This document shows positions 4,779 to 51,586 of a DNA stretch of 64,000 bases, one piece after another. The notes under the pieces are model-generated. The model searched no databases. It was not told where the DNA came from and worked only from the letters and a program-made list of their open reading frames with translations. The stretch lies in the NCBI GenBank assembly GCA_047601445.1, contig JASGJH010000001.1, forward strand, positions 2,048,001 to 2,112,000, given 5' to 3'. Each line of letters starts with the position of its first letter. Within the stretch, counting starts at the first letter, position 1. Source of the DNA: Myxococcales bacterium (GTDB lineage Bacteria > Myxococcota_A > Polyangia > Polyangiales > DASUME01). The position numbers and the translations under genes are program-made.

Positions 4779-5657
4779 TCATTCAGCACGCGCCAAACCG
4801 GCCTGCATGGCCTGCGGCAGCCGCCGCAGAGCGCCCGTGAAAGCCGCCTGGACGGCCTGCACCTTGGCGGCCTCGGTGGTACCGCCTCCCGAAACGGTGG
4901 CGGCGCCCGAGAGCATGGCCCTGATGTCGCGGCCCGGATAGGTGCCGATCACCACGGAAACCTGCGCGCGCACCGAGCCGTCGGGTCGCGCTTCCACCTT
5001 GGTCACGGAGCTATCCACGAAGTACCCGACCAGCTTGGCCGAGCCGATCACCTTTTGGGCTGCCTTCTGGTCCTCGTTCTCCGGGGCCAGCCGCACGCCC
5101 TGCATCTGCGTGACCTCCTTGACCACGTGCTCACGCAGCGCGTGCAAGGCTGGCTGCGAGAGGCCGACCTGGCTGCCCGGCACCCCCACCCCCACGTAGT
5201 AGGTCGCCGGTCCCGATGGCGCGTAGCTCGTGGACGACGAGGAGCTACCGGAGGTCGACTTGGTGGCGCCGCTGCTGGCGGCAGCAGAGGCGACTGCGCC
5301 CAGCGAATCGAGGGCGCCGCGCACGGCGGCACGCACCGAGCTGTCACGGTCGTTTTGGGCGACCTTCAAGGCCGAGATGGCCGTGGGATCTTTCAGGCGT
5401 CCCAGGGAAGCGGCGCTCGCTGCGCGTACCGCGGGGTGCTCGTCCGACAGGGCCTTCGAGAGCGCCTGCGTGACCGCGGCGGCCTGCTGCTGTCCGCCGA
5501 GGGCCAACGCAGCCTGCGTGCGAACCCTGAACTGCGCCGAAGTACCCAACATCCGGATCAGGAAATCGGTCCTGGCGTCTGCCGCGGCCACACCCGAGAA
5601 CAGCGAGCCACAGGCCAGTAAGACGGCTACGAGGAGGAAGTTGCGACGAGGCACCAT
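4779..5657 (-). CDS. Secreted HEAT-repeat protein
   Basis: Signal peptide from MVPRRNF. HEAT repeats (VRTQAALALG, VRAASAASLG), Ser-rich linker, C-terminal alpha/beta domain. Confidence 0.75.
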   Translation of the reverse strand: MVPRRNFLLVAVLLACGSLFSGVAAADARTDFLIRMLGTSAQFRVRTQAALALGGQQQAAAVTQALSKALSDEHPAVRAASAASLGRLKDPTAISALKVAQNDRDSSVRAAVRGALDSLGAVASAAASSGATKSTSGSSSSSTSYAPSGPATYYVGVGVPGSQVGLSQPALHALREHVVKEVTQMQGVRLAPENEDQKAAQKVIGSAKLVGYFVDSSVTKVEARPDGSVRAQVSVVIGTYPGRDIRAMLSGAATVSGGGTTEAAKVQAVQAAFTGALRRLPQAMQAGLARAE

Positions 5658-5887
5658 TCGCACTGAGTTTCGGACCGGGCTCACGCGACGCTCCGCGGGC
5701 AAGTGGGACCGCGCGAGTCGCCGCGCGGGCAAGTCCTGGTGACGCTGGAGTCGAAGCGGGCGGTTCCGCCCGCGAGCAAAACCGGAGCGCTGAACTTGAC
5801 GCTGATAGTGCGCATCGAAAGGTATGAACGGACCGCCACGAGCGAAGCTTCAGCGAGTATGGCAGTCGGCCGTGCGAAGCCGCAACG

Positions 5888-7684: not shown

Positions 7685-7777
7685 CTCGGCACAGGTCCCG
7701 TTCTTATATGCGGGCTCATCGAGAGCTTCGCGCGCGCGCTCGCGCGCCTCGGCTCATCGAGCGATGCAGAGGGTGAC

Positions 7778-9046
7778 ATGGGTTCCGAGTTGATCATCGC
7801 GCTAGTGGTCGTCGCCGTGGTGGTGGCCGTCCTCATATTCGCGCGCTCCAAGACGCCAAAGCTGCCACCGGCTCAGCCGCCGGAGGCCCTTCCGCCCACG
7901 GCGGCGCCTCGCGCAACTCCGGCGGCCCCGGCCAAGCCCGCCGCAGCCCCCGCCGCGAAGCCCGCGGCCCCGGGCAAGCCCGCTGCCAAGGAACCCGAGA
8001 TCTCGGTCGACGAGCCGGTCCGCGGCACCATGGAGCTCACACGGGACGAGCTGGTCACCCCTCCCCCGCCTCCGCCCCGCTTCCGTGAGCCGGAGCCCAA
8101 GCGTCCCTCCGCCGAAGATCTCGCCTCCCTCAAGAAGGGCCTGGCATCCACGCGCGGCGGCTTCATCGCGCGCCTATCGCGGCTCTTCGGCGGCAAGCCC
8201 GAGATCGATCCCCAGCTGATCGAGCAGATCGAAGAAGTGCTGATCACTGCTGACATCGGGACGAAGACCACCCAACGCATCCTCGACCGCCTGCGCGATC
8301 GCCTCTCACGCAAGGAACTCACCGACGAAGAGCGCGTGTGGGCTTCGCTGCGCGACGAGGCGCGCTCGATCCTCGGCTCGAGCACCGGTCGACTGGCCTT
8401 CAAGGGTCGTCCTGCCGTGCTGCTCGTGATCGGCGTGAACGGCGTCGGAAAGACCACCACCATCGGCAAGTTGGCCAGCCGGCTTTCAGCGCAGGGCGCC
8501 AAAATCATGCTCGTGGCCGCCGATACCTTCCGCGCAGCAGCCGTGCTGCAGCTCGAAGTGTGGGGCAAGCGCGTAGGTTGCCCCGTAGTGAAGGGCAAAG
8601 AGAACGCCGATCCGTCCTCCGTGGTGTTCGATGCGCTCAAGCGCGCCGAAAGCGAGGGGATCGATCTCGTGATCGTCGACACCGCCGGGCGCTTGCACAC
8701 CAAGGCTCCCCTCATGGAGGAGCTCAAGAAGCTGGGGCGCACGGTGGAGAAAGCGCTGGGGCGACCGGCCGATGAGATCTTGTTGGTGCTCGACTCCACC
8801 AATGGTCAGAACGCGCTTCAGCAGGCAGCGATGTTCCGCGAGGCTCTACCGATTACCGGCATTGTTCTCACCAAGTTGGACGGAACAGCCAAAGGTGGCG
8901 TGGTCCTGGGCATCGTAGACGAGCAACAACTGCCCATTCGGTTCATTGGCATCGGTGAACGAGTGGAGGATCTTCGCGAGTTCGACCCCCAGAGCTTCGT
9001 GGATGCGTTGTTCGAGAGACCCGACAGCGAGACGTCCGCTGCGTAG
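7778..9046 (+). CDS. ftsY: Signal recognition particle receptor FtsY
   Basis: GVNGVGKTTTIGKLA, DTFRAAA, DTAGRLHT and TKLDGTAKGG motifs. N-terminal TM anchor plus Pro/Ala linker. Confidence 0.97.
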   Translation: MGSELIIALVVVAVVVAVLIFARSKTPKLPPAQPPEALPPTAAPRATPAAPAKPAAAPAAKPAAPGKPAAKEPEISVDEPVRGTMELTRDELVTPPPPPPRFREPEPKRPSAEDLASLKKGLASTRGGFIARLSRLFGGKPEIDPQLIEQIEEVLITADIGTKTTQRILDRLRDRLSRKELTDEERVWASLRDEARSILGSSTGRLAFKGRPAVLLVIGVNGVGKTTTIGKLASRLSAQGAKIMLVAADTFRAAAVLQLEVWGKRVGCPVVKGKENADPSSVVFDALKRAESEGIDLVIVDTAGRLHTKAPLMEELKKLGRTVEKALGRPADEILLVLDSTNGQNALQQAAMFREALPITGIVLTKLDGTAKGGVVLGIVDEQQLPIRFIGIGERVEDLREFDPQSFVDALFERPDSETSAA

Positions 9047-9083
9047 TTTTCGCCCCCGCGTGGGACCACGCAGTTCGACGCCG

Positions 9084-9113
9084 TTGATTGTGTGAGATTC
9101 ACCGTGATATAGT
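9084..9113 (+). promoter_or_regulatory. Putative sigma70-type promoter for the outer-membrane barrel pair
   Basis: TTGATT (9084-9089), 18-bp spacer, extended -10 TG-A-TATAGT (9105-9113), in an AT-richer intergenic stretch. Confidence 0.5.
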
Positions 9114-9254
9114 CGCCGGCGCTTTGCGTTTAACGGCAGATTCCCGAGCGATTTCAAAAGGTTGCGCCCCGATCAGCCTGAGCACAAAGATGTGTCGTCA
9201 ATGCATGTAGATGCCGCGGATAGGGTCGCTGTGCGGAGTTTCAAAGAGGTATGC

Positions 9255-10193
9255 ATGACTAAGTCTCGATTGGTGGCGTGGCTCGCGCTTATCGTTAGCT
9301 CCCAAGTAAGCGCGTTAGCCTCCGCCCAGGACATGAGCTTCGGCCTCGAAGAGACGGAATCGGCCGGTGCAGAAGGTGACGCCGCGGGTGAAGCGGCGAC
9401 TAGTGGAGAGGCGGAGGGTAGTGCCGGTGGCGATGTCATCGGCGACCTGGCGGGCGATGACAGCTCGTCCACACCGAAGGCTGCAGCGCAGTCGACGGGC
9501 CCGAAGCTCAAGGAAGTCAGCGAGGAGATCTATGCGGTGCAGCAGATTTACGCGCTGCGCAACAACCGCCTGGAGTTGATGCCCTCGTTCGGCTTCACCT
9601 TGAACGATCCCTACGTGAGCCACCCGAACATCGGCGTCGGTCTCAACTACTGGATCACCAACGTGCTCGCGGTTGGCGCGAACATGAACTGGTACCAGGG
9701 CCTGGAGGACGAGTCGGATCTCAACTTCCACGTGCGTCGTTCGACGCGCCTCGCCACGCGCCCAACCGAGTTCCAGTTCGGCGCTTCCTTGAACTTCACG
9801 TACGTGCCCTTCTACGGCAAGTTCTCGATGTTCAACCGCTACATCTTCCAGTGGGACGCCTACGTGGTCGGCGGCGTCGGCGTCATGCGCACGCGCCCGG
9901 TTCCGGTGGTGGATCCCGAGTACCGCAGCTTCGACTACTCCTACAAGTTGTCGATCGGCAACCCCGGCATCGGCTTGCGCATCTTCCTCAGCAAGTGGCT
10001 CACCGTGTTCATGGAGGGCCGCACCTATCCCTATCTCGAGAAACTCGAGAACTTGTCTGTCGCGCTCGGAGCGGACCGCAAGAGTCCGTCTACTTGGAAG
10101 GACAGCTCGAACACCCTGGTATGGAACGTGGTCGCTTCAGTGGGCATGACCATCTACTTCCCCTTCAAGTTCGACTACAAGCTGCCCAAGTAA
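9255..10193 (+). CDS. Outer-membrane beta-barrel protein, GltA/GltB-type
   Basis: Signal peptide, acidic linker, amphipathic strands (RLELMPSFGFTLNDPY, PFYGKF, DAYVVGGVG), C-terminal aromatic strand. Confidence 0.75.
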   Translation: MTKSRLVAWLALIVSSQVSALASAQDMSFGLEETESAGAEGDAAGEAATSGEAEGSAGGDVIGDLAGDDSSSTPKAAAQSTGPKLKEVSEEIYAVQQIYALRNNRLELMPSFGFTLNDPYVSHPNIGVGLNYWITNVLAVGANMNWYQGLEDESDLNFHVRRSTRLATRPTEFQFGASLNFTYVPFYGKFSMFNRYIFQWDAYVVGGVGVMRTRPVPVVDPEYRSFDYSYKLSIGNPGIGLRIFLSKWLTVFMEGRTYPYLEKLENLSVALGADRKSPSTWKDSSNTLVWNVVASVGMTIYFPFKFDYKLPK

Positions 10194-10244
10194 GCCCTGA
10201 AAGCGCCAACGATGCCTACCATCCAATCGCAATCGAGGAAGTCT

Positions 10245-11174
10245 ATGAACACTGCATCGCGCTTTGTCCTGGGGCTGCTACTGGCAGCTGCAGGCTTCTT
10301 GCTCGACGCATCCGACGTCAAAGCCCAGGAGGTCCAGGTCACGGGTCCTCTGGCAGGTCAGCCGGCAGTGCGTCACATGCGCATTTACCGCGACGGGCGC
10401 TTTCAGATTCAGCCGTCTTTCGGTGTGACCATCGCAGACGACTTCGCCCGCGCCATGTTGGCGGGCGTGCAGCTTGGCTACCACTTCACGGACTGGATCG
10501 GCCTGAGCGCGTTCTTCGACTACAACTTGGTCCAGGGCGGCGGCATCGGTAACACCGGCCTCACCGACCAGATCACCGACCACGGCCAGACCACCAACCT
10601 GAACCGTCTGAGCTTGCCCAGCGCCGCTGGCTTCTCCGATCAGGTCGGCCGCATCAACTACCTGGCCGGTGTGCAGGCCACCTTCATCCCGCTCCGCGGC
10701 AAGCTCTCGCTGTTCCAGGCGCTGTTCGTCGATACGGACTTCTACCTGTTCGGCGGCGTGGCCTTCGCGGGCGTCGAAGAGCGCCAGAACATCCTCAAGA
10801 ACGCGATGGGCGACACGGCCTGTGACAACGCGCAGTTCGAGTCGGCGTCCAGCACGCCCGGCGCCGCTGCACAGTGCGTCCAGACCCAGAGCGCCCGCGC
10901 TTCGCGCATGGCCATCGCCCCCACCTTCGGCGTGGGCTTGTCCATGTACTTCACGGACTACTTGGCGCTGACCCTCGAGTACCGCGCGTTCCCCTTCAAG
11001 TGGAACACCTCGGGCACCGACGAAGGCGGTCAGAACAAGAACCGCCAGGCCGACAACAGCGGTCAGTTCCCCGATGGCCAGATCAACGAGGCCGACCGCA
11101 TCTTCCACTTCAACCAGATGTTCAAACTCGGCTTGGCCTTCTACCTGCCCTTCCAGGGCCGGATCACCGAATAG
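10245..11174 (+). CDS. Outer-membrane beta-barrel protein, GltA/GltB-type (tandem paralog)
   Basis: Signal peptide; RFQIQPSFGVT, PLRGKLSLF, DFYLFGGVAF, C-terminal LGLAFYLP. Paralogous to the upstream barrel. Confidence 0.75.
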   Translation: MNTASRFVLGLLLAAAGFLLDASDVKAQEVQVTGPLAGQPAVRHMRIYRDGRFQIQPSFGVTIADDFARAMLAGVQLGYHFTDWIGLSAFFDYNLVQGGGIGNTGLTDQITDHGQTTNLNRLSLPSAAGFSDQVGRINYLAGVQATFIPLRGKLSLFQALFVDTDFYLFGGVAFAGVEERQNILKNAMGDTACDNAQFESASSTPGAAAQCVQTQSARASRMAIAPTFGVGLSMYFTDYLALTLEYRAFPFKWNTSGTDEGGQNKNRQADNSGQFPDGQINEADRIFHFNQMFKLGLAFYLPFQGRITE

Positions 11175-40892: not shown

Positions 40893-42241
40893 GGAGTCAC
40901 CATGCCCTGCTCGTGGGCCGGAGGTACGATGGGCGTCGTGCCTACCCACACGGAGACGGCGCCGTCTTGGCCGCGCGCGCGCAAGATGAGGCGAGCGCGC
41001 TGGTCGCGCGTCGCACAGGTGAACAAGAGGGGGACGTTGCGACGCCCTTCATTGCGCGCCACGAGCAGCCCCTCGGCGTCGATCAGTCTGACGTCCACAG
41101 CAGGTGCACCGCCCTCCGCAATACCAGCGAAGGCGTAGCAAAAGCCTGCCTTCAAGGACACCGGCCATGTGTGCGGCATGCTGGCCTCGACCCAGGCATC
41201 CCCAAGCGGCGCCAGCGTGAACCCGCGCGCCTTGGCCACCACGTTGGCCTCGGCCCAAGTCAGCGCGCGTGCGGCCCCCAGTGCCCGGATGGCCGGCGCG
41301 GAGGCCCCCTCGTGCTCGAACGCGCGCACGATGACCACGCCGCGCATGGGACGCGCCTGCACGCGCACGGAGTAGACCCCGGCGAGCTCGGTGCAGATGG
41401 GAAGCTCCACCCGGTCATCCTGGGCCGCCCGAGCGTCCCACTTGCGCTCGGAGGGGCTGGGCGCAGCGACCTCCACCAGCACGCCGCGCGAGACCGGCAC
41501 GTAGGCCACCACTCGATAGCAGCGCTGCGCCTCGAGGATGAGCCCCCCTTCCGCCACTCCAGCGCGCAGCTCGAGCGCGTTGGCCCGGCCTTGCGCGCGA
41601 TAGCCCAGCTCGCGCAGCGCGCTCTCGGCCTGCTCGAGCTTGAGGTCCAGCATCAGCTCGTCCGGAGCACCGCCCACGCCGCGCGTCTGCTCGGCACGGC
41701 CGCCGGCGCTGACGGCGAACTGGATTGCTTCGGGAAGTCGCTCCACGCCACGCGGACCGTCATCGACGCGCAGCAGCAGGAGCTCGCCGCGGCCAGCGTA
41801 GAGCGTGGCGCTGACGTACATCACGAGCCCGGCCGCGCCGCACACGCGCGCGTAGGCCAGCGGCTGTTGCGCAAGGTCTTCGGCGAGCGGTTGGCCCGCC
41901 CGCGTATGCACCGCTAGGTCCACGTCGCGCACCTCGCCCGTACCCAGCGCCAAGAACCCAACGCATTCGTCGCGCTCGAGGCGAACTTCGTGCACCGAGG
42001 CTTCGCTTTCGAACAGGAACGCGCGCGCAACCTCCGATACGCCCGAGGCCCCATGCTCGAGGAGGTGACGTTTCACGGCTGGCAACAGCGCGTCGAGGTG
42101 ATGCTCCGTTGTCGCGGGGCGCACCGCAGGAGCCGGTGAGGTTCGCTGACCTCCGCGTGTCTCGGCTGCGGCGGGACTCAGGGCCGCCCACCAGCACAAA
42201 CCGCCGAGCAACCAGGTCGAGAACCGCCGCGTTGATTTCAC
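40889..42241 (-). CDS. Secreted protein with tandem Cys-bracketed beta-sandwich (PPC-like) repeats
   Basis: Signal peptide; repeats ECVGFLA..DVDLAV, RCYRVVA, FCYAFAG..VDVRL. Confidence 0.65.
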   Translation of the reverse strand: MKSTRRFSTWLLGGLCWWAALSPAAAETRGGQRTSPAPAVRPATTEHHLDALLPAVKRHLLEHGASGVSEVARAFLFESEASVHEVRLERDECVGFLALGTGEVRDVDLAVHTRAGQPLAEDLAQQPLAYARVCGAAGLVMYVSATLYAGRGELLLLRVDDGPRGVERLPEAIQFAVSAGGRAEQTRGVGGAPDELMLDLKLEQAESALRELGYRAQGRANALELRAGVAEGGLILEAQRCYRVVAYVPVSRGVLVEVAAPSPSERKWDARAAQDDRVELPICTELAGVYSVRVQARPMRGVVIVRAFEHEGASAPAIRALGAARALTWAEANVVAKARGFTLAPLGDAWVEASMPHTWPVSLKAGFCYAFAGIAEGGAPAVDVRLIDAEGLLVARNEGRRNVPLLFTCATRDQRARLILRARGQDGAVSVWVGTTPIVPPAHEQGMVTP

Positions 42242-43176
42242 TTGGGCTTGGCTTGCGCGCCGTCGCTGGTCTTACTGGCCTGCGCGCGCGCCACGATGGA
42301 AGCGATGGCTTCGTTGGCGGCCTTGCGCACCGAGGGCGGCGACCCCGGCGCGGCATAGGGCCTGAGCTTGGGCGTGGCGTCGGACGTACCCACCTGGCCC
42401 AGCGCCGCGATCAGTCGCAGCCGTTGCGCTTGATCTTGGTTCGCGGCGGCCAGCAGCTTGAACAGCGCATCGCTCTTCTGGGGACTCTTGATGGCCGCGA
42501 TGGAATTGGTGACTTCCGCCTTCTCCTCGTCGTCGCGCTCCCCCTTGGACACGTACTGCACCAGCGGCTCGAGAGCGGCCGGATCGCCGATGCGCCCCAG
42601 GCTCAGCACCGCCGAGACGCGCACCGAGCGCACGGGATCGGAGAGCAGGCGAATCACGTCGTGGGTCACGCGAGGCTCACCGATCACGCCGAGCGCCTGC
42701 ACCGACCACTCTCGCACCGCGGGTTCCGAATCGGACAAGTGACGGACCAACGCATCGATGGCCGAGGGGTCCGGCAAGCGCCAGAGGGCCGCCGCCGCCA
42801 CCACACGCACGTCGGGACTCTTGTCTTCGAGGGCCGCAATCAAGTCGGGCACCGCGTCTCGCACGCCAAGCCGGCCCAGGGCTCTGCCCGCCGCAGCGCG
42901 CACCAGCGGCTCGGGATCGCTCTTGAGCAGTGGGCGCAGCACATTGGCGATCTCGTGCCGGACGCGATAGCCGCGACGCCCCATCTCGTCCGCCGCGGAC
43001 GCGCGATCGGCGGCGTTGGGAGACTTGAGGCGCTCGAGGGCAGAACGAAAGGCTTCTTCGTTCTGCCCGCCCGGGACCTGGGCTGGTGCCGGAGCCTGCG
43101 CCCGCGCCGAACCCGCACCAGCCAGCGTCGCCCCCAGCAAGCAGCCGCACAAAGACAAGCGAATTACCCAGCCCAT
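42238..43176 (-). CDS. Secreted HEAT-repeat protein
   Basis: Signal peptide; six or more L-x-D-x-x-x-x-V-R-x-x-A repeats. Confidence 0.85.
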   Translation of the reverse strand: MGWVIRLSLCGCLLGATLAGAGSARAQAPAPAQVPGGQNEEAFRSALERLKSPNAADRASAADEMGRRGYRVRHEIANVLRPLLKSDPEPLVRAAAGRALGRLGVRDAVPDLIAALEDKSPDVRVVAAAALWRLPDPSAIDALVRHLSDSEPAVREWSVQALGVIGEPRVTHDVIRLLSDPVRSVRVSAVLSLGRIGDPAALEPLVQYVSKGERDDEEKAEVTNSIAAIKSPQKSDALFKLLAAANQDQAQRLRLIAALGQVGTSDATPKLRPYAAPGSPPSVRKAANEAIASIVARAQASKTSDGAQAKPK

Positions 43177-43286
43177 GCTCCCCGACCTCGTCGACCCATC
43201 TTCCGCTCGGCCTGGCGCGTCCTCGCGCCCACCGAGCCGGGTCGCACCCTCCCACGACGCGAGGCCGTCGTCATGATTCAGGGGAC

Positions 43287-45068
43287 TCATCGACCCGGCT
43301 TCGCGCGGGTGGAGGTCTCGCCCTTACCGGGAGCCGGCAAACGTGCGGTAGACAACACATCTCGCACCGAAGGTAGGGCACTGAGCGCGCGAACCACCGG
43401 TTCGGCGGCGTCCTGGATGCCGCCCAGGACGCGAGATAGCTCGGTCTCGAGCTCCTCGACCCGTTGCCGCACCTGCTGAAGCTCGGCCTCGGCCTCGGCC
43501 GTGACGATACCGAGTCGCCCTTTGAGCTGCGCGACCTGGAAGTTGAGGTCTTCCCGCTCCCGCTCGGCCGAATGCACGCGTGCACGCAGCGCGGGCAGCT
43601 GCGCCTCCGCCTCGAGCCAAAGCGCCGCCTGTCCTCCGATTTGGCGCAGGCGCTCGGCCAGGGCAGTGTTCATCGCCAGACGTCCGACGCGCGGCTGCGC
43701 CAGCTCGTACACCGCGGAGAACAGTGGCTGAGCCAGCTCGTTCAAGCGCGACTCGGCTTGCGCATAGCCCTCGGCGGCGTCGGCGATACGGCGTGCCACG
43801 CGCGACTCATCTTGCCCCAGTTCATCGACCGCGCGGCCCATCCGCAGACGCGAGGCACGCACGTGATCCTCGTGCTCCTTGGCCCGCAGCAAGTTGTCCC
43901 CGAGTTCCTTGCGCATGGCGCGCGCGCGGTTCACCAACTGTTGCAGCTCGGTCATGCTGGCCCGCACCTCGTTCGGCGGGCTGCCGCTCGGATAGGCGCG
44001 GGGCAACATGTCCTGATACAGGTCCACGCGCGCAGCCCAGCTCTCCTCGGCGGCGTCGAGCCACGGCTGCGTGGCCTGCGGCTCGATCATCGGAACGGAC
44101 ATCATCCCGGAGCGTCGCGGTGGACGCGAAGGGCGGCTGCCTTGCAGCTCGTCCAGGATGGAACTCAGCTCGTCGGCCAAGTGGTACGCGTCGGAGAAGC
44201 GCTCCCCCGGGTGCTTGGCGAGCATGCGCAGCACGAGCGCGTCGATCTTGCCTCGCAGCGGCAGATCCGGGCGCAGCGACGACGGTGGACTCGGCGGCAC
44301 CTGCAGGTGCTTGAGCACCACCTCCGGGCTCGGCCCCTCGAACGGCAAACTGCCCGTCAGCATCTCGTAGAGCACGCAGCCGAGGGCGTACTGGTCCGCC
44401 TGACCCGTCAACGGCTCGCCTCGCGCCTGCTCCGGCGCCAGGTACTCGGGGGTGCCGAAGACCTTCCCGGTGGCGGTGAGCCGGTGTTCGCCGACCACCT
44501 TTGCCAAACCGAAATCCAGCAGCTTCACGAAGTCCGCGCCGCGCCGCTGCTGTACGAAGACGTTGTCGGGCTTGACGTCGCGGTGGATCACGTCGAGTTC
44601 GTGGGCGCGTGCCAGCGCCGTGGCCAACTGGTGGGCAATGGTCAGCGCTCGAACCGGCTCCAGCGGGCCCGCTCCGATGACCTTGCCGAGCGGCTCGCCC
44701 TCCAGGTACTCCATCACCAGGAAGACCAGACCATCGGAGGTCTCGCCAAAGTCCGTGATGTCGATGATGTGCTCGTGATCGATGCGGTTGGCGGCTCTGG
44801 CTTCGCGCAAGAAACGCTCGCGTGCAGCCGGATCACGGGCATAGCGGGGTGACAGGAACTTGAGCGCGACATCGCGGCCCACCAGCTGATGGCGACCTCG
44901 ATAGACCGCCCCCATGCCGCCCGTGCCGATTAACTCGGACACCACGTAGCGCCCGCCGATCGTGCGACCGACAAGGGGATCGGGCAGCGGCTCGAGCTGC
45001 GTGCCGTCGAACGGACAAACCCGTGCCTCAGATGTGAATCGTGATTGGCAGACCGGGCAGTGCTGCAA
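43287..45068 (-). CDS. Hanks-type Ser/Thr protein kinase with N-terminal zinc ribbon and C-terminal coiled coil
   Basis: IGTGGMG, VALK, HRDVKPDN, DFG, GTPEYLAPE; N-terminal CPVC...CPFDG. Start uncertain (TTG 45068 or 45131). Confidence 0.93.
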   Translation of the reverse strand: MQHCPVCQSRFTSEARVCPFDGTQLEPLPDPLVGRTIGGRYVVSELIGTGGMGAVYRGRHQLVGRDVALKFLSPRYARDPAARERFLREARAANRIDHEHIIDITDFGETSDGLVFLVMEYLEGEPLGKVIGAGPLEPVRALTIAHQLATALARAHELDVIHRDVKPDNVFVQQRRGADFVKLLDFGLAKVVGEHRLTATGKVFGTPEYLAPEQARGEPLTGQADQYALGCVLYEMLTGSLPFEGPSPEVVLKHLQVPPSPPSSLRPDLPLRGKIDALVLRMLAKHPGERFSDAYHLADELSSILDELQGSRPSRPPRRSGMMSVPMIEPQATQPWLDAAEESWAARVDLYQDMLPRAYPSGSPPNEVRASMTELQQLVNRARAMRKELGDNLLRAKEHEDHVRASRLRMGRAVDELGQDESRVARRIADAAEGYAQAESRLNELAQPLFSAVYELAQPRVGRLAMNTALAERLRQIGGQAALWLEAEAQLPALRARVHSAEREREDLNFQVAQLKGRLGIVTAEAEAELQQVRQRVEELETELSRVLGGIQDAAEPVVRALSALPSVRDVLSTARLPAPGKGETSTRAKPGR

Positions 45069-45142
45069 CGGATCCCCCTCAAACACGTCGAGCGAGCGAA
45101 GACGATAGCGCTCATGGGAATGCCCGAGCAACTGAGCAGGAG

Positions 45143-45174
45143 ATTCTTGACTTTTCCGATGGGTGAACTAGGGT
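45143..45174 (+). promoter_or_regulatory. Putative promoter / Rrf2 operator of the sulfur operon
   Basis: TTGACT-N16-TAGGGT. The ATTCTTGACT half-site resembles IscR/CymR-type boxes. Confidence 0.35.
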
Positions 45175-45197
45175 TGTCCGGTTTTCGTGAGGTCTGC

Positions 45198-45656
45198 GTG
45201 AAGCTCTCCAGCCGGGGTCGCTACAGCGTCCGTGCCATGTTCGATATCGCGTTCCACGGCGAAGGCGCCGCGGCGCAGATCAAGGACATCGCCGAGCGCC
45301 AGGGCATCCCGCCGCGGTTCCTGGAGCAGATCTTCCAGGACCTGAGGCGAGCAGGCCTGGTCTCGAGCAAGCGCGGCCCCCGCGGCGGCTACCACCTCGC
45401 CCGAGCTGCCCGTGAGATTTCGGTGGGCGAAATCGTGCGCGCTGTGGAAGGGCCCCTGAGCCTGTGCGCCGGGGAGGAAGACGCAGCAGATAGCGGCGAC
45501 GTCGCGAGCATCGGGGTCACCGAGAACATGTTCCGCGACCTATCCGCGCGCGTGGCCGCCTGTTTCGACCAGGTCACGCTCGAGGACCTCTCGGACCAGG
45601 CCCAGCGCCAAGGTGTTCGCCGGGGCAATCCCGGCGGCTATGTCTACGTCATCTAG
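45198..45656 (+). CDS. Rrf2-family regulator, CymR-like
   Basis: IAERQGIPPRFLEQI, SKRGPRGGYHL. Lacks the IscR three-Cys motif; ends YVYVI; directly upstream of cysK. Confidence 0.9.
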   Translation: MKLSSRGRYSVRAMFDIAFHGEGAAAQIKDIAERQGIPPRFLEQIFQDLRRAGLVSSKRGPRGGYHLARAAREISVGEIVRAVEGPLSLCAGEEDAADSGDVASIGVTENMFRDLSARVAACFDQVTLEDLSDQAQRQGVRRGNPGGYVYVI

Positions 45657-45671
45657 TAGAGTTCGAACCCC

Positions 45672-46598
45672 ATGACAGCTCCGGTCGTCGACAACGTCCT
45701 CTCTCTCATCGGCAACACGCCCCTGGTGCGCCTGCGACGGGTCGTGCCGGAAGGCGCCGCGGCGGTGTGGGCGAAGTGTGAGCAGCTGAATCCCGGCGGA
45801 TCGGTCAAAGACCGCATCGCGCTTGCGATGATCGAAGCGGCGGAGCGCGACGGCAGACTCAAGCCCGGGGACACGGTGGTGGAGCCCACCAGCGGCAACA
45901 CCGGCATCGGTCTGGCCCTGGTGTGCGCGCGCAAGGGCTACAAGCTCGTGCTGACCATGCCCGAAAGCATGTCGCTCGAGCGCCGCGCGCTGCTGGAGGC
46001 CTATGGGGTCGAGATCGTGCTCACGGCGGCCGAGCGCGTGATGGAAGGGGCCATCGAGGCCGCCCAGGAAATCCTGGCCGAGCGCAAGGCCTTCATGCCG
46101 AGTCAGTTCGACAACCCCGAGAATCCGAACGCCCATCGCCGGCAAACGGCCCAGGAGATTTTGGCGGCGCTCGAGGGCGAACCGCTGCACGCGCTGGTGG
46201 CCGCGGTGGGCACGGGTGGAACCGTAAGCGGCGTGGGCGAGGAGCTCAAGGCCAAGCACCCGAGCCTCAAGGTGATCGCTGTGGAGCCCGAGGCGAGCCC
46301 CGTGCTGGCGGGCGGCGAGCCAGGTCCCACCAAGATTCAGGGCATCGGCGCAGGCTTCGTCCCGGGCAACTTCCATCACCAGGTGGTGGACGAGATCCGC
46401 CAGGTGGCCGATCGAGATGCCTACGAGATGAAGATCCGGCTAGCCAAGGAAGAAGGCCTGCTGGTGGGTATCAGCGCCGGCGCCAACGTGCGCGTGGCCG
46501 CGCAGCTGGCCAAGGAGTTGGGCCCCGGAAAAACGGTGGTCACGGTGCTGTGCGACACCGGTGAGCGCTACTTCAGCCTGGACGAGTACTTCAAGTGA
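45672..46598 (+). CDS. cysK: Cysteine synthase A
   Basis: NPGGSVKDR (PLP Lys), EPTSGNTG, GTGGT, KIQGIGAG and DTGERY motifs. Confidence 0.93.
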   Translation: MTAPVVDNVLSLIGNTPLVRLRRVVPEGAAAVWAKCEQLNPGGSVKDRIALAMIEAAERDGRLKPGDTVVEPTSGNTGIGLALVCARKGYKLVLTMPESMSLERRALLEAYGVEIVLTAAERVMEGAIEAAQEILAERKAFMPSQFDNPENPNAHRRQTAQEILAALEGEPLHALVAAVGTGGTVSGVGEELKAKHPSLKVIAVEPEASPVLAGGEPGPTKIQGIGAGFVPGNFHHQVVDEIRQVADRDAYEMKIRLAKEEGLLVGISAGANVRVAAQLAKELGPGKTVVTVLCDTGERYFSLDEYFK

Positions 46599-47344
46599 AC
46601 GCAACGGCACAGACAGTCACGAGCGCCGCGGATGGACGCGGCGTGCTGGTGATCGGAGTCGGCGGACTCTCGTCACCCGCGCTGTCCGTGCTGGTGGAAA
46701 GCGGCGTGCGACGTCTGACGCTGATCGACGCGGACCGCGTGGACGAGACCAACTTGCAGCGCCAAACCCTGTTCTCCGAGGCCGACGTTGGCCGCCCCAA
46801 GGTGGAAGCCGCCGCGGAACGCCTGCGCTCGCTGAGCCCGGAGCCGCTGCAGCTGGAGCTCATCGAGGGCCGTTTTGCCCCCGAAAACGCCCGGGACGTC
46901 GTGGCGGGACATCGCTTGGTGCTCGAAGGAGCCGACAACTACGCCACCAAGTTCCTGGCGGCGGACACCGCCAAGCTCGAAGGACTATCGGTGGTACAGG
47001 CCGGCGCCGTACGACTCTCGGGGTGGGCCCTGGCGGCCCTGCCCGATGCAGGTCCCTGTCTGCGCTGCGTGTTCGAAGACATCCCACGCGGACAGCCCGA
47101 GACCTGCGCGGTCGCGGGCGTGCTCGGTCCGGTGGTGGGCGTGCTCGGTGCGCTCGAAGCGGCCCTCGCGGTTCAGCTCCTGCTCGGTCAGACTCGCGCC
47201 GCCGGCGTGCTCTGGAGCTACGATGCGCCGGCCGGGCGCCTGCGCAGGCGTCGTGTGTCCCCCAGGGCAGGCTGCGCGCTGTGCAGCGGCGAAATCACCA
47301 CGCTCGACCTCGAGCGCTACGACAGCAACCACTGCGCTGCCTAG
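46595..47344 (+). CDS. ThiF/MoeB-family adenylyltransferase (E1), lacking the N-terminal Arg-finger segment and rhodanese domain
   Basis: VIGVGGLS, DADRVDETNLQRQ, GADN, zinc pairs CLRC/CALC, central Cys in ETCAVAG. Confidence 0.9.
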   Translation: MNATAQTVTSAADGRGVLVIGVGGLSSPALSVLVESGVRRLTLIDADRVDETNLQRQTLFSEADVGRPKVEAAAERLRSLSPEPLQLELIEGRFAPENARDVVAGHRLVLEGADNYATKFLAADTAKLEGLSVVQAGAVRLSGWALAALPDAGPCLRCVFEDIPRGQPETCAVAGVLGPVVGVLGALEAALAVQLLLGQTRAAGVLWSYDAPAGRLRRRRVSPRAGCALCSGEITTLDLERYDSNHCAA

Positions 47345-47376
47345 CGGCGCAAACACCTTCTGCAAAGGAGCCATCG

Positions 47377-47652
47377 ATGCCTATTACCGTTCGAATCCCA
47401 ACCCCCCTGCGCACCCTCACCGGCGGAGCCGACGAAGTCACCATCGAAGGCGGCAACGTCGGAGAGGTCATCGAGAACCTCGAAAAAAAGCACCCGGGCA
47501 TCAAGGAGCGTCTCTGCGACGAAAAGGGCAACGTACGCCGCTTCGTCAACGTCTACGCCAACGAAGAGGACATCCGCTTCCTCGACAACCTGGCGACGAC
47601 TCTCAAAGAGGGCGACTCGGTGAGCATCGTCCCCGCCATCGCGGGCGGCTGA
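47377..47652 (+). CDS. MoaD/ThiS/CysO-type ubiquitin-fold sulfur carrier
   Basis: AAGGAG RBS; VRIPTPLR...FVNVYANEEDIRFL...VPAIAGG with free C-terminal GG. Confidence 0.92.
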   Translation: MPITVRIPTPLRTLTGGADEVTIEGGNVGEVIENLEKKHPGIKERLCDEKGNVRRFVNVYANEEDIRFLDNLATTLKEGDSVSIVPAIAGG

Positions 47653-47666
47653 AGGAAGAACTCGTC

Positions 47667-48041
47667 GTGCCGCTCAACGCTCGCCAGCGCACTCGCTATG
47701 CACGCCACCTGCTCCTGCCCGAAGTGGGCCTTGTGGGGCAGGAGCGTCTGGTGGAAGCGCGTTTGGGGCTGGGCGAGAGCGCCGATCCGCGCGCTGCCAA
47801 GGTGGCGCAGCTGTATCTCGAGCGGGCCGGCGTGAGCGTGGAGAGCGACGCTGCGCTGCGCGTTCGAGTGGCCGACACCGACTCGGTCCGCCGCCTGGCG
47901 GGAAGCCCCGCGCTCGAGCCAGCGGCAGCGGCACTAGCGGGCGCGCTCGGCGCCGTGGAAGCCATCAAAGAAGTGTTGCAGTTGGGAGCCAAAGGCGACG
48001 TGTCGCTGGCTCCGCTGTCTCTGGTACCGGAGGACGTGTGA
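47667..48041 (+). CDS. Minimal inactive ThiF/MoeB-like protein (pseudo-E1)
   Basis: 124 aa from GTG after GAAGGAAG. Has RYARHLLLPEVGLVGQERL, LYLERAGV and GALGAVEAIK, but no GxGxxG, NLxRQ or zinc Cys. Confidence 0.75.
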   Translation: MPLNARQRTRYARHLLLPEVGLVGQERLVEARLGLGESADPRAAKVAQLYLERAGVSVESDAALRVRVADTDSVRRLAGSPALEPAAAALAGALGAVEAIKEVLQLGAKGDVSLAPLSLVPEDV

Positions 48042-48964
48042 GCCGCTTCAAGCGCATCGATTCGATCGTCGAGGCCGTGGGCAACACGCCGTTGGTGCGC
48101 CTGCGCAGCATCGAGCGCGACGCCCCCGGCGTGAAGATCTACCTCAAGCTCGAGTACACCAACCCGGGTGGCTCGGTGAAAGACCGCCCTGCCCTGCAGA
48201 TGCTCACCGATGCGATCAAGGACGGGCGCTTCACCAGGGACAAGATCCTCGTGGACGCCACCAGCGGCAACACGGGCGTCGCGCTCTCTTTATTCGGCGC
48301 TTGCCTCGGCTACCGCATCGCGCTGGTGATGCCTTCCAACGTCTCGCAAGCCCGCAAGAACATCACCCAGGCCTTCGGCACCCAGCTCATCTACAGCGAT
48401 CCCATGGAGGGCTCCGACGGCGCCATCCGCCTGGTGCGCAAGCTGGTGGCCGAGGAACCCGACAAGTACTTCTACTCGGACCAGTACTCGAACCCGAGCA
48501 ACCCCAGGGCACATTACCTCGGGACCGGTCGGGAGATCCTCGAGCAGGTGGGCGACGAGATCACCCACTTCGTGACCGGACTCGGCACCAGCGGCACCAT
48601 GATGGGGACCACCCGTCGTCTGCGGGAGCACTCGCGGAAGATCACCTGCATCGCCGCCGAGCCCGCGGAGGCGCTGCATGGCCTTGAGGGGCTCAAGCAC
48701 ATGCCGAGCTCCATCGTGCCGAACATTTACGACCCGAACCTCGCCGACGAGCTCTTGCCCGTGCCCACCGAGGGCGGCTGGGACATGGCGGACCGCCTCG
48801 CGCGCGAGGAAGGACTGCACGTGGGGCACTCGACCGGCGCCAACGTGTGGGCCGCGCTCACCGTGGCCAAGCGAGTCAAAGAAGGCTGCGTGGTGACCAT
48901 CGCCTGCGACCGCGGCGACCGCTACTTCGCTCCGATGCGCTGGGAGAAGCAGTATGAGTGGTGA
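48038..48964 (+). CDS. cysM: Cysteine synthase B / CysM-like PLP enzyme
   Basis: NPGGSVKDR, ATSGNTG, GTSGT, DRGDRY. Lies between the carrier and JAMM genes, recalling mycobacterial mec-cysO-cysM. Confidence 0.75.
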   Translation: MSRFKRIDSIVEAVGNTPLVRLRSIERDAPGVKIYLKLEYTNPGGSVKDRPALQMLTDAIKDGRFTRDKILVDATSGNTGVALSLFGACLGYRIALVMPSNVSQARKNITQAFGTQLIYSDPMEGSDGAIRLVRKLVAEEPDKYFYSDQYSNPSNPRAHYLGTGREILEQVGDEITHFVTGLGTSGTMMGTTRRLREHSRKITCIAAEPAEALHGLEGLKHMPSSIVPNIYDPNLADELLPVPTEGGWDMADRLAREEGLHVGHSTGANVWAALTVAKRVKEGCVVTIACDRGDRYFAPMRWEKQYEW

Positions 48965-49451
48965 TCGTCCCTGGATCGCGGGTGACCTGGAGATCTCGCG
49001 CGAAGTGCTGGCTGAAATCGAGGCCCACGCGCTCGCGACCTATCCGAGCGAGTGTTGCGGCTTCGTGAGCGGGCCCCAGAGCCAGGCCAAGCTGCTCGAC
49101 GCCTACGTGCGCGAAGAGAACGAGGCCGACAAATATCACAAGCTCGACCCGGAGACGTTCCCGCGGACGTCACGGACGTACTTCAAGATCAACGAGCTCA
49201 GGGCCGCCAAGGCCTTCGACGCCGGCGACAAGAACGGCCGCCCGATCAAGGTCATCTATCATTCGCACTGTGACGCCGGCGCTTACTTCTCGCAGGAAGA
49301 CGCCGCCACGTTCGCCTCCGACAAACAGCTGATGTGGCCCTGCGCCTTCATCGTGGTGAGCGTGCAGAACGGCCAGCTCGCCGAGCGAAAGCTGTGGATC
49401 CACGTGCCCGGTACCAACGATTTCCGCGAATCCTCCCTGACCGTCCGATGA
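48954..49451 (+). CDS. JAMM/MPN+ metallopeptidase (Mec-like)
   Basis: YPSECCG and YHSHCDAGAYFSQED, matching E...HxH-x7-S-x2-D. Confidence 0.92.
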   Translation: MSGDRPWIAGDLEISREVLAEIEAHALATYPSECCGFVSGPQSQAKLLDAYVREENEADKYHKLDPETFPRTSRTYFKINELRAAKAFDAGDKNGRPIKVIYHSHCDAGAYFSQEDAATFASDKQLMWPCAFIVVSVQNGQLAERKLWIHVPGTNDFRESSLTVR

Positions 49452-51205
49452 ACGACATCGAAGAGCTTAGTTGCGATCTCCTGATCATCGGCGGCGGTGC
49501 GGCCGGCTGCGTCGCCGCCGTGGAGGCGCGTGAGAAGGCCCCGGACCTCGACGTCCTCTTGGTCGAGAAGGCCCACATCTACCGCAGTGGCTGTCTGGCC
49601 GCCGGCATCAGCGCCATCAACGCGTACCTGACGCCCGGAGAGACCGCCGAATCGTTCCTGCGCTACACCATCCGCGACACCCACGGCATCGTGCGCGACG
49701 ATCTGGTGCTGAGCATGGCGCGTGAGCTCAACGCGCAGTCCCACCGCGTGGAGAAGTGGGGCCTGCCCATCCCGCGCGACGAGAATGGCCACCCGCTCAA
49801 GCGCGGCCGTGCCTCGATCAAGATCCTGGGTGAGCGCATCAAGCCCATCATCGGCAAGGCCACCGAGGCCAGCGGCGCGCGCATCATGAACCGCGTGAAC
49901 ATCACCGGCCTGGCCACGCATCGTGGCCGCGTGATCGGCGCCTTCGGATTCAACATCCGCACCGGGAAGTTCATCTCCATCCGCGCCAAGGCGACCCTGC
50001 TCTGCACGGGGGGCACCGCGGGCCTGTATCGCCCCAACAACCCGGGCATGGCCTCTCACCGCATGTGGTACTCGCCCTTCAACACGGGCGCCGGCCTCGC
50101 GATGGGCATCCGCAGCGGCGCGGAGATGACGAGCTTCGAGTTCCGCTTCATCCCTCTGCGCATCAAGGACGCAATCGCTCCGACCGGCGAGATCGCACAG
50201 TGGCTCGGCGCCAAGCAGATCAACGCGCGCGGCGAGGCCTACCTGGACAAGTACTACCAGCACCTCGGCGGCTCTCGCATGACCACCCAGGATCGCCTCT
50301 ACGCGACGCTGCAAGAGAAGATGGCCGGTCGTGGACCTTGCTATCTGGACATCAGCAACGTGGACCCGCGCAAGCTGGAGGGCACCACGCGCTCGTACCT
50401 CTCGATGGCACCGCCGGCTGCGATGCTGCTGCAGGACGAGATGTACTACGGGCGGGGCGGCGGCTCGATGGCGCCGGTGGAAATCACGGGCAGCGAACCG
50501 CACGTCGTCGGCGGCCACGGTCTCTCGGGCTACTGGGTCGACGTGTCGCGCAAGACGACCCTGCCTGGTCTGTGGGCGGCGGGTGACGTGGCCGGTGGCT
50601 CGCCCAAGAAGTACGCGTCGGGAGCCTGGGCCGAAGGCGTGCTGGCGATTCGCGACATGATCGACGACGTGCGCACGCGGAAGTCTGTGGAGCTCGACGA
50701 GGAGCAGATCCTCAAGGAGCGTGACCGCGTGTTCGCGCCGTTCGAGGACAAGCCCGGCACTTCACCGCGTGAGCTGGAGGAGCGCCTGCAAAAGGTGATG
50801 GACGAGTACGCCGGCGGCATCAGCCAGATGTACATGTACTCGGAGGGCGAGCTGAAAATCGCCGAGATTCACCTCAAGCGTCTCGAGCAGGAGTTCAACG
50901 CCATCACCGCGGGTAGCTTGCACGAGCTGTTGCATGCTCACGAGTTGATGGATCGCGTGACCGTGGCGCAGACGCTGGTAGCTCACATGCTGCATCGCCA
51001 GGAGACACGCTGGCACTGCTATCAGGAGCGTGTGGACTATCCGCAGCGCGACGACGCTCGTTGGAGCGTATTCGTAAACTCGGTTCGCAAGGGCGACCGT
51101 ATCGAGATGGTGGAACGGCCGGTAGAGCGCGCGAATGTCGAAGTCGTGCTGCCAGAGCTCGCCGATGGCGCCATCATTCGTCACAGCACGAGTTCTTCGG
51201 AGTAG
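49448..51205 (+). CDS. aprA: Adenylylsulfate (APS) reductase alpha subunit (flavoprotein)
   Basis: IIGGGAAG, EKAHIYRSGCLAAGISAINAY, WYSPFNTGAG, FRFIPLRIKD and RQETRW motifs. Confidence 0.85.
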   Translation: MNDIEELSCDLLIIGGGAAGCVAAVEAREKAPDLDVLLVEKAHIYRSGCLAAGISAINAYLTPGETAESFLRYTIRDTHGIVRDDLVLSMARELNAQSHRVEKWGLPIPRDENGHPLKRGRASIKILGERIKPIIGKATEASGARIMNRVNITGLATHRGRVIGAFGFNIRTGKFISIRAKATLLCTGGTAGLYRPNNPGMASHRMWYSPFNTGAGLAMGIRSGAEMTSFEFRFIPLRIKDAIAPTGEIAQWLGAKQINARGEAYLDKYYQHLGGSRMTTQDRLYATLQEKMAGRGPCYLDISNVDPRKLEGTTRSYLSMAPPAAMLLQDEMYYGRGGGSMAPVEITGSEPHVVGGHGLSGYWVDVSRKTTLPGLWAAGDVAGGSPKKYASGAWAEGVLAIRDMIDDVRTRKSVELDEEQILKERDRVFAPFEDKPGTSPRELEERLQKVMDEYAGGISQMYMYSEGELKIAEIHLKRLEQEFNAITAGSLHELLHAHELMDRVTVAQTLVAHMLHRQETRWHCYQERVDYPQRDDARWSVFVNSVRKGDRIEMVERPVERANVEVVLPELADGAIIRHSTSSSE

Positions 51206-51244: not shown

Positions 51245-51586
51245 ATGGGTATCTTCGTAGACGAGAACGTGTGCAACGGCTGCGGCATCGCCGAGGAGCC
51301 CATGTGCGTGCGCGACTGTCCCGGCGACCTGATGATCCTCAAAGAGAATCGTAAGGCCATCATCCGGGACAACCGCGACTGCTGGGACTGCGCCGCGTGC
51401 GTGAAAGTGTGTCCGACTCAGGCCATCGCCATGCAGCTGCCGAGCTCGGTGATCGTGCGAGGCGTCAAGCTCAAGGGCCGCGCCATCAAGCACAAGACGA
51501 CTTGGAAGCTCAAGCTACGCGACGGCACGGAGCGCGCTTACGAGACGCCCAGCACGGGCAACGCTCCGTTCAACCCGAGCCTGTAG
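51245..51586 (+). CDS. aprB: APS reductase beta subunit (2x[4Fe-4S] ferredoxin)
   Basis: CNGC-x7-C-x3-CPGDLM and CWDCAACVKVCP; follows aprA; GGAGGAG RBS. Confidence 0.85.
   Translation: MGIFVDENVCNGCGIAEEPMCVRDCPGDLMILKENRKAIIRDNRDCWDCAACVKVCPTQAIAMQLPSSVIVRGVKLKGRAIKHKTTWKLKLRDGTERAYETPSTGNAPFNPSL

Follow-up and report, generated by a model that had tools for sequence, protein, structure and literature searches.

A candidate two-subunit E1-like enzyme encoded on either side of a CysO-like sulfur carrier gene in a Myxococcales genome

A stretch of 64,000 nucleotides from a Myxococcales bacterium (GenBank assembly GCA_047601445.1, contig JASGJH010000001.1, positions 2,048,001 to 2,112,000; called the window here) raises the question of whether a bacterial E1-like enzyme can be made from two unequal gene products. 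A gene for a CysO-like sulfur carrier lies in the window between two genes for relatives of ThiF and MoeB. The gene upstream of it, thiF-short (46595-47344, + strand, GTG start), encodes an E1-like adenylyltransferase of 249 amino acids (aa) from which the N-terminal Arg-finger helix is missing. The gene downstream of it (47667-48041, + strand) encodes a protein of 124 aa, called mini, which has that helix and no catalytic site. The carrier itself (47377-47652, + strand) is 91 aa long, has the ThiS/MoaD/SAMP1 fold, and ends in Gly-Gly (AIAGG followed by the stop codon); it matches Pfam ThiS at 61.2 bits and NCBIfam SAMP1 at 61.3 bits against a cut-off of 60. The locus therefore encodes two different chains of the E1 fold, one of which is catalytically dead. 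With moderate confidence, we read the pair as a pseudo-symmetric E1-like heterodimer that is dedicated to this carrier, ThiF-short being its active and mini its inactive subunit. The anatomy, conservation, strict co-occurrence, and fold of the two proteins were established directly, while a 1:1 pseudo-dimer formed through the canonical E1 dimer face is predicted by modelling.

ThiF-short is the active chain without the N-terminal Arg helix, and it starts at strand beta-1. It matches the Pfam ThiF family (PF00899) at 174.9 bits against a cut-off of 28.1, over positions 23-236 of the 238 in the profile. It aligns with residues 30-246 of the 251 in Escherichia coli ThiF (E 7e-35) and with residues 32-248 of MoeB. 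Because the alignments begin at ThiF 30 and MoeB 32, the first ~30 residues are missing, including the Y-x-R-Q segment and with it the Arg finger (MoeB Arg14, ThiF Arg11). The nucleotide-binding motifs are all present (Gly loop G21-x-G23-G24, D45/D47, N53-L54-Q-R56-Q57, K69, and D114), and so are the cysteines C155-x-x-C158, C171, and C227-x-x-C230. All of these residues are invariant in an alignment of 118 relatives. The equivalence to MoeB Lys86, Asp130, and Cys187 was drawn from the alignment and from the residue list in passages of PMC12355090. ThiF-short also keeps the helix homologous to the dimer helix, and it has no rhodanese domain.

To judge from its relatives, the N-terminal truncation is a property of the thiF-short family. 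The relatives examined were the best 120 of 1285 with E<=1e-20, which are 210-304 aa long and 58-100% identical to ThiF-short. Their tails ahead of strand beta-1 consist of 2-48 variable residues, and none of the 120 has [YFH]-x-R-[QH] ahead of the Gly loop; the loop itself is missing from two of them, which are fragments. The genome has three ThiF-family loci, and the two besides thiF-short have their own N-termini. One (G000:C1:2003010-2003720, - strand) is a full-length ThiF-family gene ~45 kb upstream of the window, whose frame of 403 aa matches profile positions 1-238. The other (G000:C1:3396204-3396962, + strand) matches positions 3-203 in a 376-aa frame. ThiF-short is ~31% identical to either of the genome's two other ThiF-family proteins, including a MoeZ-like E1. 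Mini is 33% identical to the MoeZ-like E1 over 108 columns, with the best agreement in the N-terminal part that is common to all MoeB-like proteins. No donor of the pair can be named from the comparison with the genome's own MoeZ-like E1.

Mini is a truncated ThiF/MoeB homologue, but by threshold it is not a member of PF00899. It has no Pfam match at E<=0.1, and it matches the NCBIfam MoeB/ThiF models over residues 3-74 at 13.6-32.8 bits, all far below the cut-offs of 266-647. The match to PRK08762 covers residues 4-74 (E 2.8e-8), and the match to PRK05690 places residues 3-56 on positions 5-56 of a profile of 250. A profile of the mini family matches ThiF and MoeB chains with E ~7e-7 to 1e-6, with positions 2-66 and 2-93 aligned to chain residues 3-65 and 4-95. 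Further on, positions 92-113 give a second, weak match to ThiF/MoeB residues 198-220, which is the helix with the EAIK motif. The Gly loop, NLQRQ, and the catalytic Asp are all absent from the mini sequence, which contains no Cys and no CxxC pair, and the family consensus likewise contains no ATP-loop or catalytic residues; mini reads GLGESADPR where the Gly loop would stand. Strand beta-1 and helix alpha-1 are present in both ThiF-short and mini, which makes mini a reduced paralogue rather than a piece simply split off from ThiF-short. The family matches of ThiF-short, mini, and the carrier far exceed what chance would give.

These results bear out what was observed in an earlier account of the locus, referred to here as the sequence-only reading. 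It had assigned all catalytic elements and no RYxR segment to the open reading frame (ORF) at 46595, and both points hold in the relatives as well as in the protein itself. It had also described the ORF at 47667 as carrying an RYAR segment and the EAIK helix while lacking every catalytic motif. The absence of the motifs and the presence of the helix are borne out, the latter by the weak match given above. Within the RYAR segment, R13, its second arginine, aligns with MoeB Arg14 and is invariant, while R10, its first, is only the majority residue (80-89% of 88 rows).

The mini family consists of stand-alone proteins of ~100-160 aa that have kept a set of invariant residues. A word-indexed search among proteins of 68-217 aa found 87 homologues with 40-99% identity. 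An exhaustive search with the mini profile covered 1.84 billion cluster representatives. It matched 3571 of them with E<=0.001, of which 284 reach E<=1e-10 and 52 reach E<=1e-30; the lengths of the best 150 all fall within 97-210 aa. In 83 mini sequences, 11 columns are without variation (R13, Q25, L28, Y50, L51, R53, G55, G92, A96, V97, and E98), and 17 further columns are at least 90% conserved. The most conserved parts are beta-1/alpha-1 and the long helix 81-104. The nearest clusters in the ESM Atlas are named "hypothetical protein"; they contain proteins of 102-122 aa, have 61-277 members, and have Myxococcota as the commonest known phylum. Most source names among the 87 homologues are likewise "hypothetical protein". 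The mini gene starts with GTG preceded by AGGAAG, its stop codon overlaps the start of cysM, and its content of guanine plus cytosine (GC) by codon position, 0.84/0.50/0.77, resembles that of the neighbouring genes.

Conservation of this kind makes two other origins of the small ORF very improbable: a duplicated moeB/thiF gene that has lost its function, and a frame open by chance in GC-rich DNA. Spurious long frames do occur often in this DNA; over cysK and cysO, several that run from stop to stop proved to be off-frame artefacts. The lack of a Pfam match for mini would also fit a remnant. Against this, an intact ORF of ~100-160 aa is conserved over many families with invariant residues, which already contradicts the idea. 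The fixed place between cysO and cysM, the confident autonomous fold, the plausible ribosome-binding site, and the translational coupling to cysM point the same way. The decaying moeB fragment that the sequence-only reading had raised is refuted by the 284 representatives at E<=1e-10 and the 11 invariant columns.

The predicted fold of mini resembles the N-terminal part and one interface helix of ThiF and MoeB. An AlphaFold2 model built from the family alignment has a predicted local distance difference test score (pLDDT) of 87.4 and a predicted template modelling score (pTM) of 0.78. It contains helices 5-14 and 21-30, strand 32-35, helix 41-53, strand 64-66, and helices 71-78 and 81-104. Helix 81-104 is equivalent to MoeB ~199-220, and the start of the Rossmann fold is degenerate. 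When mini is modelled alone, the first two ten-residue blocks have pLDDT values of 74 and 61 and the core has values of 90-98. A Foldseek search of the Protein Data Bank (PDB) with this model gave no match at E<=0.001, and the top rows were ThiF, MoeB, and Uba4 at E ~0.1. VIA-align of mini to those rows gave Z values in the range 7.0-7.6, with 7.6 for MoeB and 7.4 for ThiF. Chains of the APPBP1-UBA3 NEDD8 E1 (3dbh_G, Z 7.5; 1yov_A, Z 7.4) and of the SAE1-SAE2 SUMO E1 (1y8q_C, Z 7.2) are also found. The root-mean-square deviation is ~3.0 A over 108-110 of the 124 residues. From their lengths, we take chains 3dbh_G, 1yov_A, and 1y8q_C to be the inactive subunits APPBP1 and SAE1. The sequence matches of mini to ThiF and MoeB are in agreement with these structural ones.

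In the predicted complex, mini occupies the surface of ThiF-short on which a second ThiF protomer would sit. The complex was predicted from the ThiF alignment, ATP, and the mini alignment in three runs. The interface score ipSAE (interaction prediction score from aligned errors) was 0.92, 0.93, and 0.92, against 0.01 for the best control. At least 95% of contacts are shared between the runs, and the partner has a pLDDT of 91. The predicted contacts join ThiF 28-36 and 171-197 to mini 46-54 and 81-101, which by alignment are homologous helices, and homologous positions touch each other in the model (ThiF 183/186 with mini 93/90). This pairing of homologous surfaces gives a pseudo-dyad, as expected if mini replaces the second protomer. 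Of the 28 mini residues that are invariant or at least 90% conserved, 21 lie within the 47 of 124 residues predicted to be in the interface (hypergeometric p 7e-6). A mirror-tree comparison of 46 loci showed that ThiF is the best correlate of mini divergence (r 0.83). The partial correlation of mini and ThiF given CysM is 0.60, with none of 2000 permutations as high, and that of mini and CysO given CysM is 0.03. Interface conservation and the mirror-tree are each weak lines of evidence when taken alone.

The same predictions bear on a different arrangement, a 2:2 assembly in which a ThiF-short homodimer forms the core and two minis dock onto it by their N-terminal helices only. In that case mini would complement a split protein instead of replacing a protomer. 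The segment missing from ThiF-short is exactly the one found in mini, and the lower pLDDT of the N-terminal helix in the mini-alone model, compared with the core, is as expected of a segment that needs a partner. But mini also keeps beta-1/alpha-1 and helix 81-104, which goes far beyond the missing segment, and these parts are predicted to pack on the homologous helices of ThiF, excluding a ThiF homodimer through the same face. In addition, the mini profile found neither a mini-ThiF nor a CysO-mini fusion among proteins of 281-2000 aa, which is weak evidence, since this range and the 68-217 aa of the homologue search were the lengths covered. We consider the 2:2 assembly improbable. The sole match of the mini profile among proteins of 281-2000 aa was a ThiF+rhodanese protein of 392 aa (E 1.4e-9). 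Long stop-to-stop frames, 204-642 aa in some loci, first looked like cysK-thiF or cysO-mini fusions, and both candidates were rejected. The peptide upstream of thiF is an off-frame read-through rich in R, A, G, and P, and cysO and mini are in different frames in the three loci checked (L073, L077, and L079).

In the relatives, thiF-short and mini are found together. The order cysK, thiF-short, cysO, mini, cysM, mec is present in all 11 loci of relatives that were found through the mini protein. The same synteny occurs in all 13 loci from named Myxococcota metagenome-assembled genomes (MAGs), which carry Polyangiales, Sandaracinaceae, or Myxococcales labels; in one of these cysM is cut by the contig end, and another has fragmented matches. 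In the latter (L016, CAWHVG010000003.1, 762435-769824), the cysK, cysM, and mec matches are each in two or three pieces, which may be due to frameshifts or assembly errors, while those of thiF, cysO, and mini are unbroken. Two contigs of one Sandaracinaceae MAG (L029 and L032) both read thiF, cysO, mini, mec, cysM being absent between the last two. The repetition of this arrangement could be a duplication or an assembly artefact. The same scan included 15 non-myxobacterial loci, in which what matches "mini" is just the N-terminal end of a full-length ThiF/MoeB, or tblastn detected no match.

A count that started from CysO avoids choosing loci by the feature being counted. It covered 39 loci, from this genome and 38 relatives of the same order. 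In 26 of them thiF-short is found upstream and a mini-like ORF downstream of cysO. In 12 neither gene is present, the arrangement being cysK-cysO-cysM-mec in 11 and cysO-mec in one. No locus has thiF-short alone or mini alone. In the remaining locus the contig starts at cysO, and mini is present. Six of the 26 minis were seen only or mainly by a hidden Markov model (E 1.6e-28 to 1e-4), and one more, in genome G025, is weak (E 1.4e-3). The sequence-only reading had suggested surveying genomes for an N-truncated ThiF accompanied by the small subunit, and this is the pattern observed. Since thiF-short and mini are on opposite sides of cysO, they could be gained or lost jointly only by two events or by exchange of a whole cassette. 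All of these genomes, whether they have the thiF-short/mini pair or not, contain a full-length MoeZ-like gene of ~400 codons, and so the presence of mini follows that of thiF-short rather than that of E1s at large. In the 12 genomes with neither gene, CysO is presumably activated by this unlinked full-length MoeZ-like E1. The loci with neither gene are L051, L058-L061, L067, L068, L070-L072, L075, and L076, in genomes G026, G038, G021, G015, G035, G014, G012, G028, G032, G034, G027, and G029.

Outside this order the pair is found in variant form. In a sample of 401 genomes from the phylum, each of the 25 best places for mini (E 1.6e-43 to 1.9e-18) belongs to this same order. Genome G123, from another order, has a variant operon (L112, G123:C312:14000-31000, about 5581-10970; also L108) with cysK, thiF-short, a PALP enzyme, cysO, a NIL-domain gene, a mini-like gene, cysM, and mec. 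The mini-like protein of 163 aa is less reduced and just reaches the Pfam ThiF cut-off (29.3 against 28.1 bits, profile 1-93). The NIL-domain gene matches Pfam NIL at 51.9 bits, and the cysO frame of this genome seems to end in GGR instead of GG. In genome G132, from another class, the genes are thiF, cysO, mini, and mec.

The co-occurrence also bears on the most serious alternative, that ThiF-short is a self-sufficient homodimeric E1 without an Arg finger and that mini is an accessory or regulatory partner rather than a required catalytic subunit. Mini might, for example, cap or compete for the dimer surface, tune the activity, or bridge to CysM or a sulfur donor. ThiF-short keeps every catalytic residue of its own chain as well as the helix homologous to the dimer helix, and twelve related operons work with neither gene, as this alternative would allow. 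Nevertheless we regard it as unlikely. R13 is invariant in 83 mini sequences, although much of the remainder is variable. Mini is predicted on the surface of the second ThiF protomer, and because both would use the same surface they cannot bind together. The strict pattern of both or neither (26 and 12, none alone) is unexpected for an accessory protein that can be dispensed with.

The heterodimer of active ThiF-short and inactive mini would work as follows. ThiF-short would supply the site of its own chain, consisting of the Gly loop, R56 of NLQRQ, K69, D114, C171, the tetracysteine site, and the C-terminal part that binds the carrier. Mini would be a ThiF/MoeB paralogue pared down to what the second protomer contributes, namely the dimer surface (helices 46-54 and 81-104) and the N-terminal helix. 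By homology, R13 of mini, which corresponds to MoeB Arg14 and ThiF Arg11, would reach in trans into the ATP site of ThiF-short, and the pair would adenylate the C-terminal Gly-Gly of CysO. The stoichiometry would be 1:1:1, again by homology; mini does not have the C-terminal part that binds the carrier, and so there would be one CysO per pair. After thiocarboxylation, the CysM-like enzyme would form a CysO-cysteine adduct, and the JAMM peptidase would release cysteine, as CysO, CysM, and Mec do in mycobacteria. The aprAB-like genes nearby hint at a connection with sulfate reduction.

Several observations weigh against a heterodimer of this kind. One concerns the Arg finger itself. Passages of PMC13139853 state that ThiF Arg11 and MoeB Arg14 act from the neighbouring subunit and also report that these fingers are non-essential, and ThiF-short might therefore work without one. 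In the predicted complex, the interface residues include mini 9-14 (with R13 among them) and ThiF 51-58 (the NLQRQ region, which in MoeB binds ATP phosphates), in a list that gives neither their contact with each other nor distances to ATP. The ipSAE of 0.92 stands against the control value of 0.01 and implies no preference for the heterodimer over a ThiF-short homodimer. The ipSAE mark is passed by 116 of 157 complexes with a solved structure and by 2 of 215 mismatched pairs, counts that are only roughly valid here, with our own alignments used and ATP riding along. Solved MoeB/ThiF homodimers that the model has memorised may account for part of the score. What the prediction establishes is thus a resemblance of the ThiF-short/mini pair to an E1 dimer rather than binding. 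A search for sequencing runs covering 45600-49500 listed none. The structural Z values of mini are all below 8, a range that can be unspecific. The mirror-tree correlation can also be produced by a shared history of transfer or by shared rates. Mini has evolved fast, with identities of 34-62% where CysM keeps 63-95%, which fits a pseudoenzyme constrained mainly at its interface and equally fits a loosely constrained accessory protein. Finally, the relatives are not independent. The label of both or neither would need at least four changes on a CysM tree of 40 rows that is too weakly resolved for counting independent gains or losses, and the well-supported branches force only one.

Asymmetric E1s are textbook knowledge in eukaryotes. 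In NAE1-UBA3 and SAE1-UBA2 the inactive partner supplies the arginine, and in UBA1 Arg57 belongs to the inactive domain. Passages of PMC12355090 place Arg57 of UBA1 at the gamma-phosphate site together with Arg515. Like the pair described here, NAE1(APPBP1)-UBA3 and SAE1-UBA2 combine an active and an inactive subunit of the adenylation fold, and their chains are among the best structural matches of mini (Z 7.2-7.5). However, the eukaryotic inactive subunits are full-size and have insertions, with ~310 residues modelled in the SUMO E1 and ~520-530 in the NEDD8 E1, compared with the 124 aa of mini. The eukaryotic active subunits also have Cys and ubiquitin-fold (UFD) domains and pass the ubiquitin-like protein to an E2, whereas here there is no E2, Cys domain, or UFD, and the product is presumably a thiocarboxylate.

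Among bacterial systems, E. coli MoeB-MoaD and ThiF-ThiS (PDB 1JW9/1JWA and 1ZUD/1ZFN) share with this locus the fold, the active-site residues of the catalytic chain, and a carrier of the ThiS/MoaD fold with a GG end. MoeB and ThiF form dimers of two identical, fully active protomers according to passages of PMC12355090, while here the Arg N-terminus and the catalytic body are on separate gene products and the second chain is a protein of 124 aa with neither an ATP site nor a carrier site. The mycobacterial CysO-CysM-Mec system (operon type 4c/4d, Iyer et al. 2006) has the same set of carrier, cysteine synthase, and JAMM peptidase. Passages of that paper (PMC1779556) describe operons that combine ThiS/MoaD, E1, JAB, and cysteine synthase, and an E1 fused to rhodanese. 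The mycobacterial E1, MoeZ, consists of a full-length ThiF domain and a rhodanese domain, in contrast to the rhodanese-less, N-truncated ThiF and mini found here.

Asymmetry within a bacterial E1 is already known in one protein. According to passages of a 2023 preprint (PMC10557695), all known bacterial E1-like proteins are homodimers except BilD, the E1 of Type II BilABCD systems. BilD is similar to the present pair in being bacterial and in having an inactive and an active adenylation domain that form a pseudo-dimer, with Arg9 coming from the inactive one. In BilD, however, both domains sit in one chain, the inactive one is full-size, and there is a mobile Cys domain; the enzyme functions in protein conjugation and phage defence. 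Here, by contrast, two genes flank the carrier, the inactive subunit is minimal, and the operon is one for cysteine biosynthesis. A further parallel is the yeast Tcd1-Tcd2 dehydratase for cyclic N6-threonylcarbamoyladenosine (ct6A), a heterodimer of ThiF-fold paralogues in which the Arg59 finger of Tcd1 completes the site of its partner (PMC13139853, 2026). Tcd1 and Tcd2 are both full-size and act on transfer RNA, and the R59A change had little effect.

The new part is therefore the two-gene form with a minimal inactive subunit, the asymmetric bacterial E1 being known already in the single-chain form of BilD. In the literature searched, no description was found of a bacterial E1 that is split between two genes, serves a sulfur-carrier pathway, and has its inactive subunit reduced to ~100-160 residues, though Burroughs et al. 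2009 (Proteins) may bear on it; the combination does not occur in the passages of Iyer et al. 2006 (PMC1779556) that were available. The sequence-only reading had proposed an obligate asymmetric heterodimer as a prokaryotic parallel of the eukaryotic split, and this proposal survives in part. Complementary halves, conservation, co-occurrence, tracking divergence, and predicted binding to the dimer surface favour the heterodimer, while the reports on the MoeB and ThiF Arg fingers mean that it may not be obligate. As a parallel to eukaryotes it would stand for the two-gene form, and BilD precedes it for the division into inactive and active parts.

A wider proposal is that myxobacterial primary sulfur metabolism has a two-subunit E1, active and inactive, that arose independently of eukaryotes and of single-chain BilD, with an inactive subunit of ~100-160 residues and with the pair gained or lost as a unit around cysO. 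We hold the chances of this to be evenly balanced. If it is true, mini would be the smallest known pseudo-E1, and it would show which parts of the second protomer an E1 site needs, namely the Arg-finger helix and two interface helices on a Rossmann stub. The origin of the asymmetric eukaryotic E1 from symmetric MoeB/ThiF homodimers is an open question, and the pair would be a second, independent, and simpler case of the transition from symmetry to asymmetry, in a housekeeping sulfur-carrier pathway. It would also be a small and tractable system for studying the Arg finger and the contribution of the second protomer, the role of the Arg finger in MoeB and ThiF being disputed in passages of PMC13139853. 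The mini family, now "hypothetical protein", could be annotated.

The other genes of the operon fit a function in sulfur metabolism, and as a set they appear to be those of CysO-dependent cysteine synthesis. The window has a GC content of 0.61-0.71. The operon is tightly packed on the + strand and consists of genes for an Rrf2 regulator, cysK, thiF-short, the cysO-like carrier, mini, and cysM-like, mec-like, aprA-like, and aprB-like proteins. Several gene junctions overlap by 1-4 bases, as at cysK/thiF (GTGA) and mini/cysM (GTGTGA). The Rrf2-family regulator (45045-45656) is IscR/CymR-like, with a Pfam Rrf2 match of 126.9 bits over residues 54-184 and an NCBIfam rrf2_super match of 122.8 bits against a cut-off of 73.3. 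Its true start is probably later than the listed 45045, with ~50 surplus N-terminal residues ahead of the family match. The cysK gene (45672-46598) encodes cysteine synthase A (TIGR01139, 407.1 bits, cut-off 350.95; Pfam PALP).

Downstream of mini, the cysM-like gene (48038-48964) encodes a relative of cysteine synthase B. CysM is its best model (TIGR01138), but the score of 342.2 bits is below the equivalog cut-off of 394.2. The cysKM subfamily score, 328.8 against a cut-off of 344.15, is also below, and Pfam PALP is matched at 214.2 bits. The protein may be a distinct, CysO-dependent subtype of cysteine synthase. The mec-like gene (48954-49451) encodes a JAMM/JAB peptidase (Pfam Prok-JAB, 61.3 bits, cut-off 25). 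It is followed by a gene for an aprA-like adenylyl-sulfate reductase alpha subunit (49334-51205; NCBIfam NF005331, 738.1 bits, cut-off 557, residues 41-598). The listed aprA-like ORF overlaps mec by 118 bases, yet the family match begins only at residue 41. The real start is probably the in-frame ATG at ~49448 (MNDIEEL...), which would give a 4-base ATGA overlap with the mec stop codon. The aprB-like gene (51245-51586) encodes a 4Fe-4S ferredoxin subunit that matches Pfam Fer4 families and TIGR02060 at 67.9 bits, below the cut-off of 135.65.

Two genes on the minus strand lie divergently upstream of the operon, within 42238-45131. One encodes a Ser/Thr protein kinase of 614 aa (Pfam Pkinase, 159 bits) that carries a long C-terminal tail resembling a coiled coil. 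The other encodes a HEAT-repeat protein of 350 aa (HEAT_2, 130 bits).

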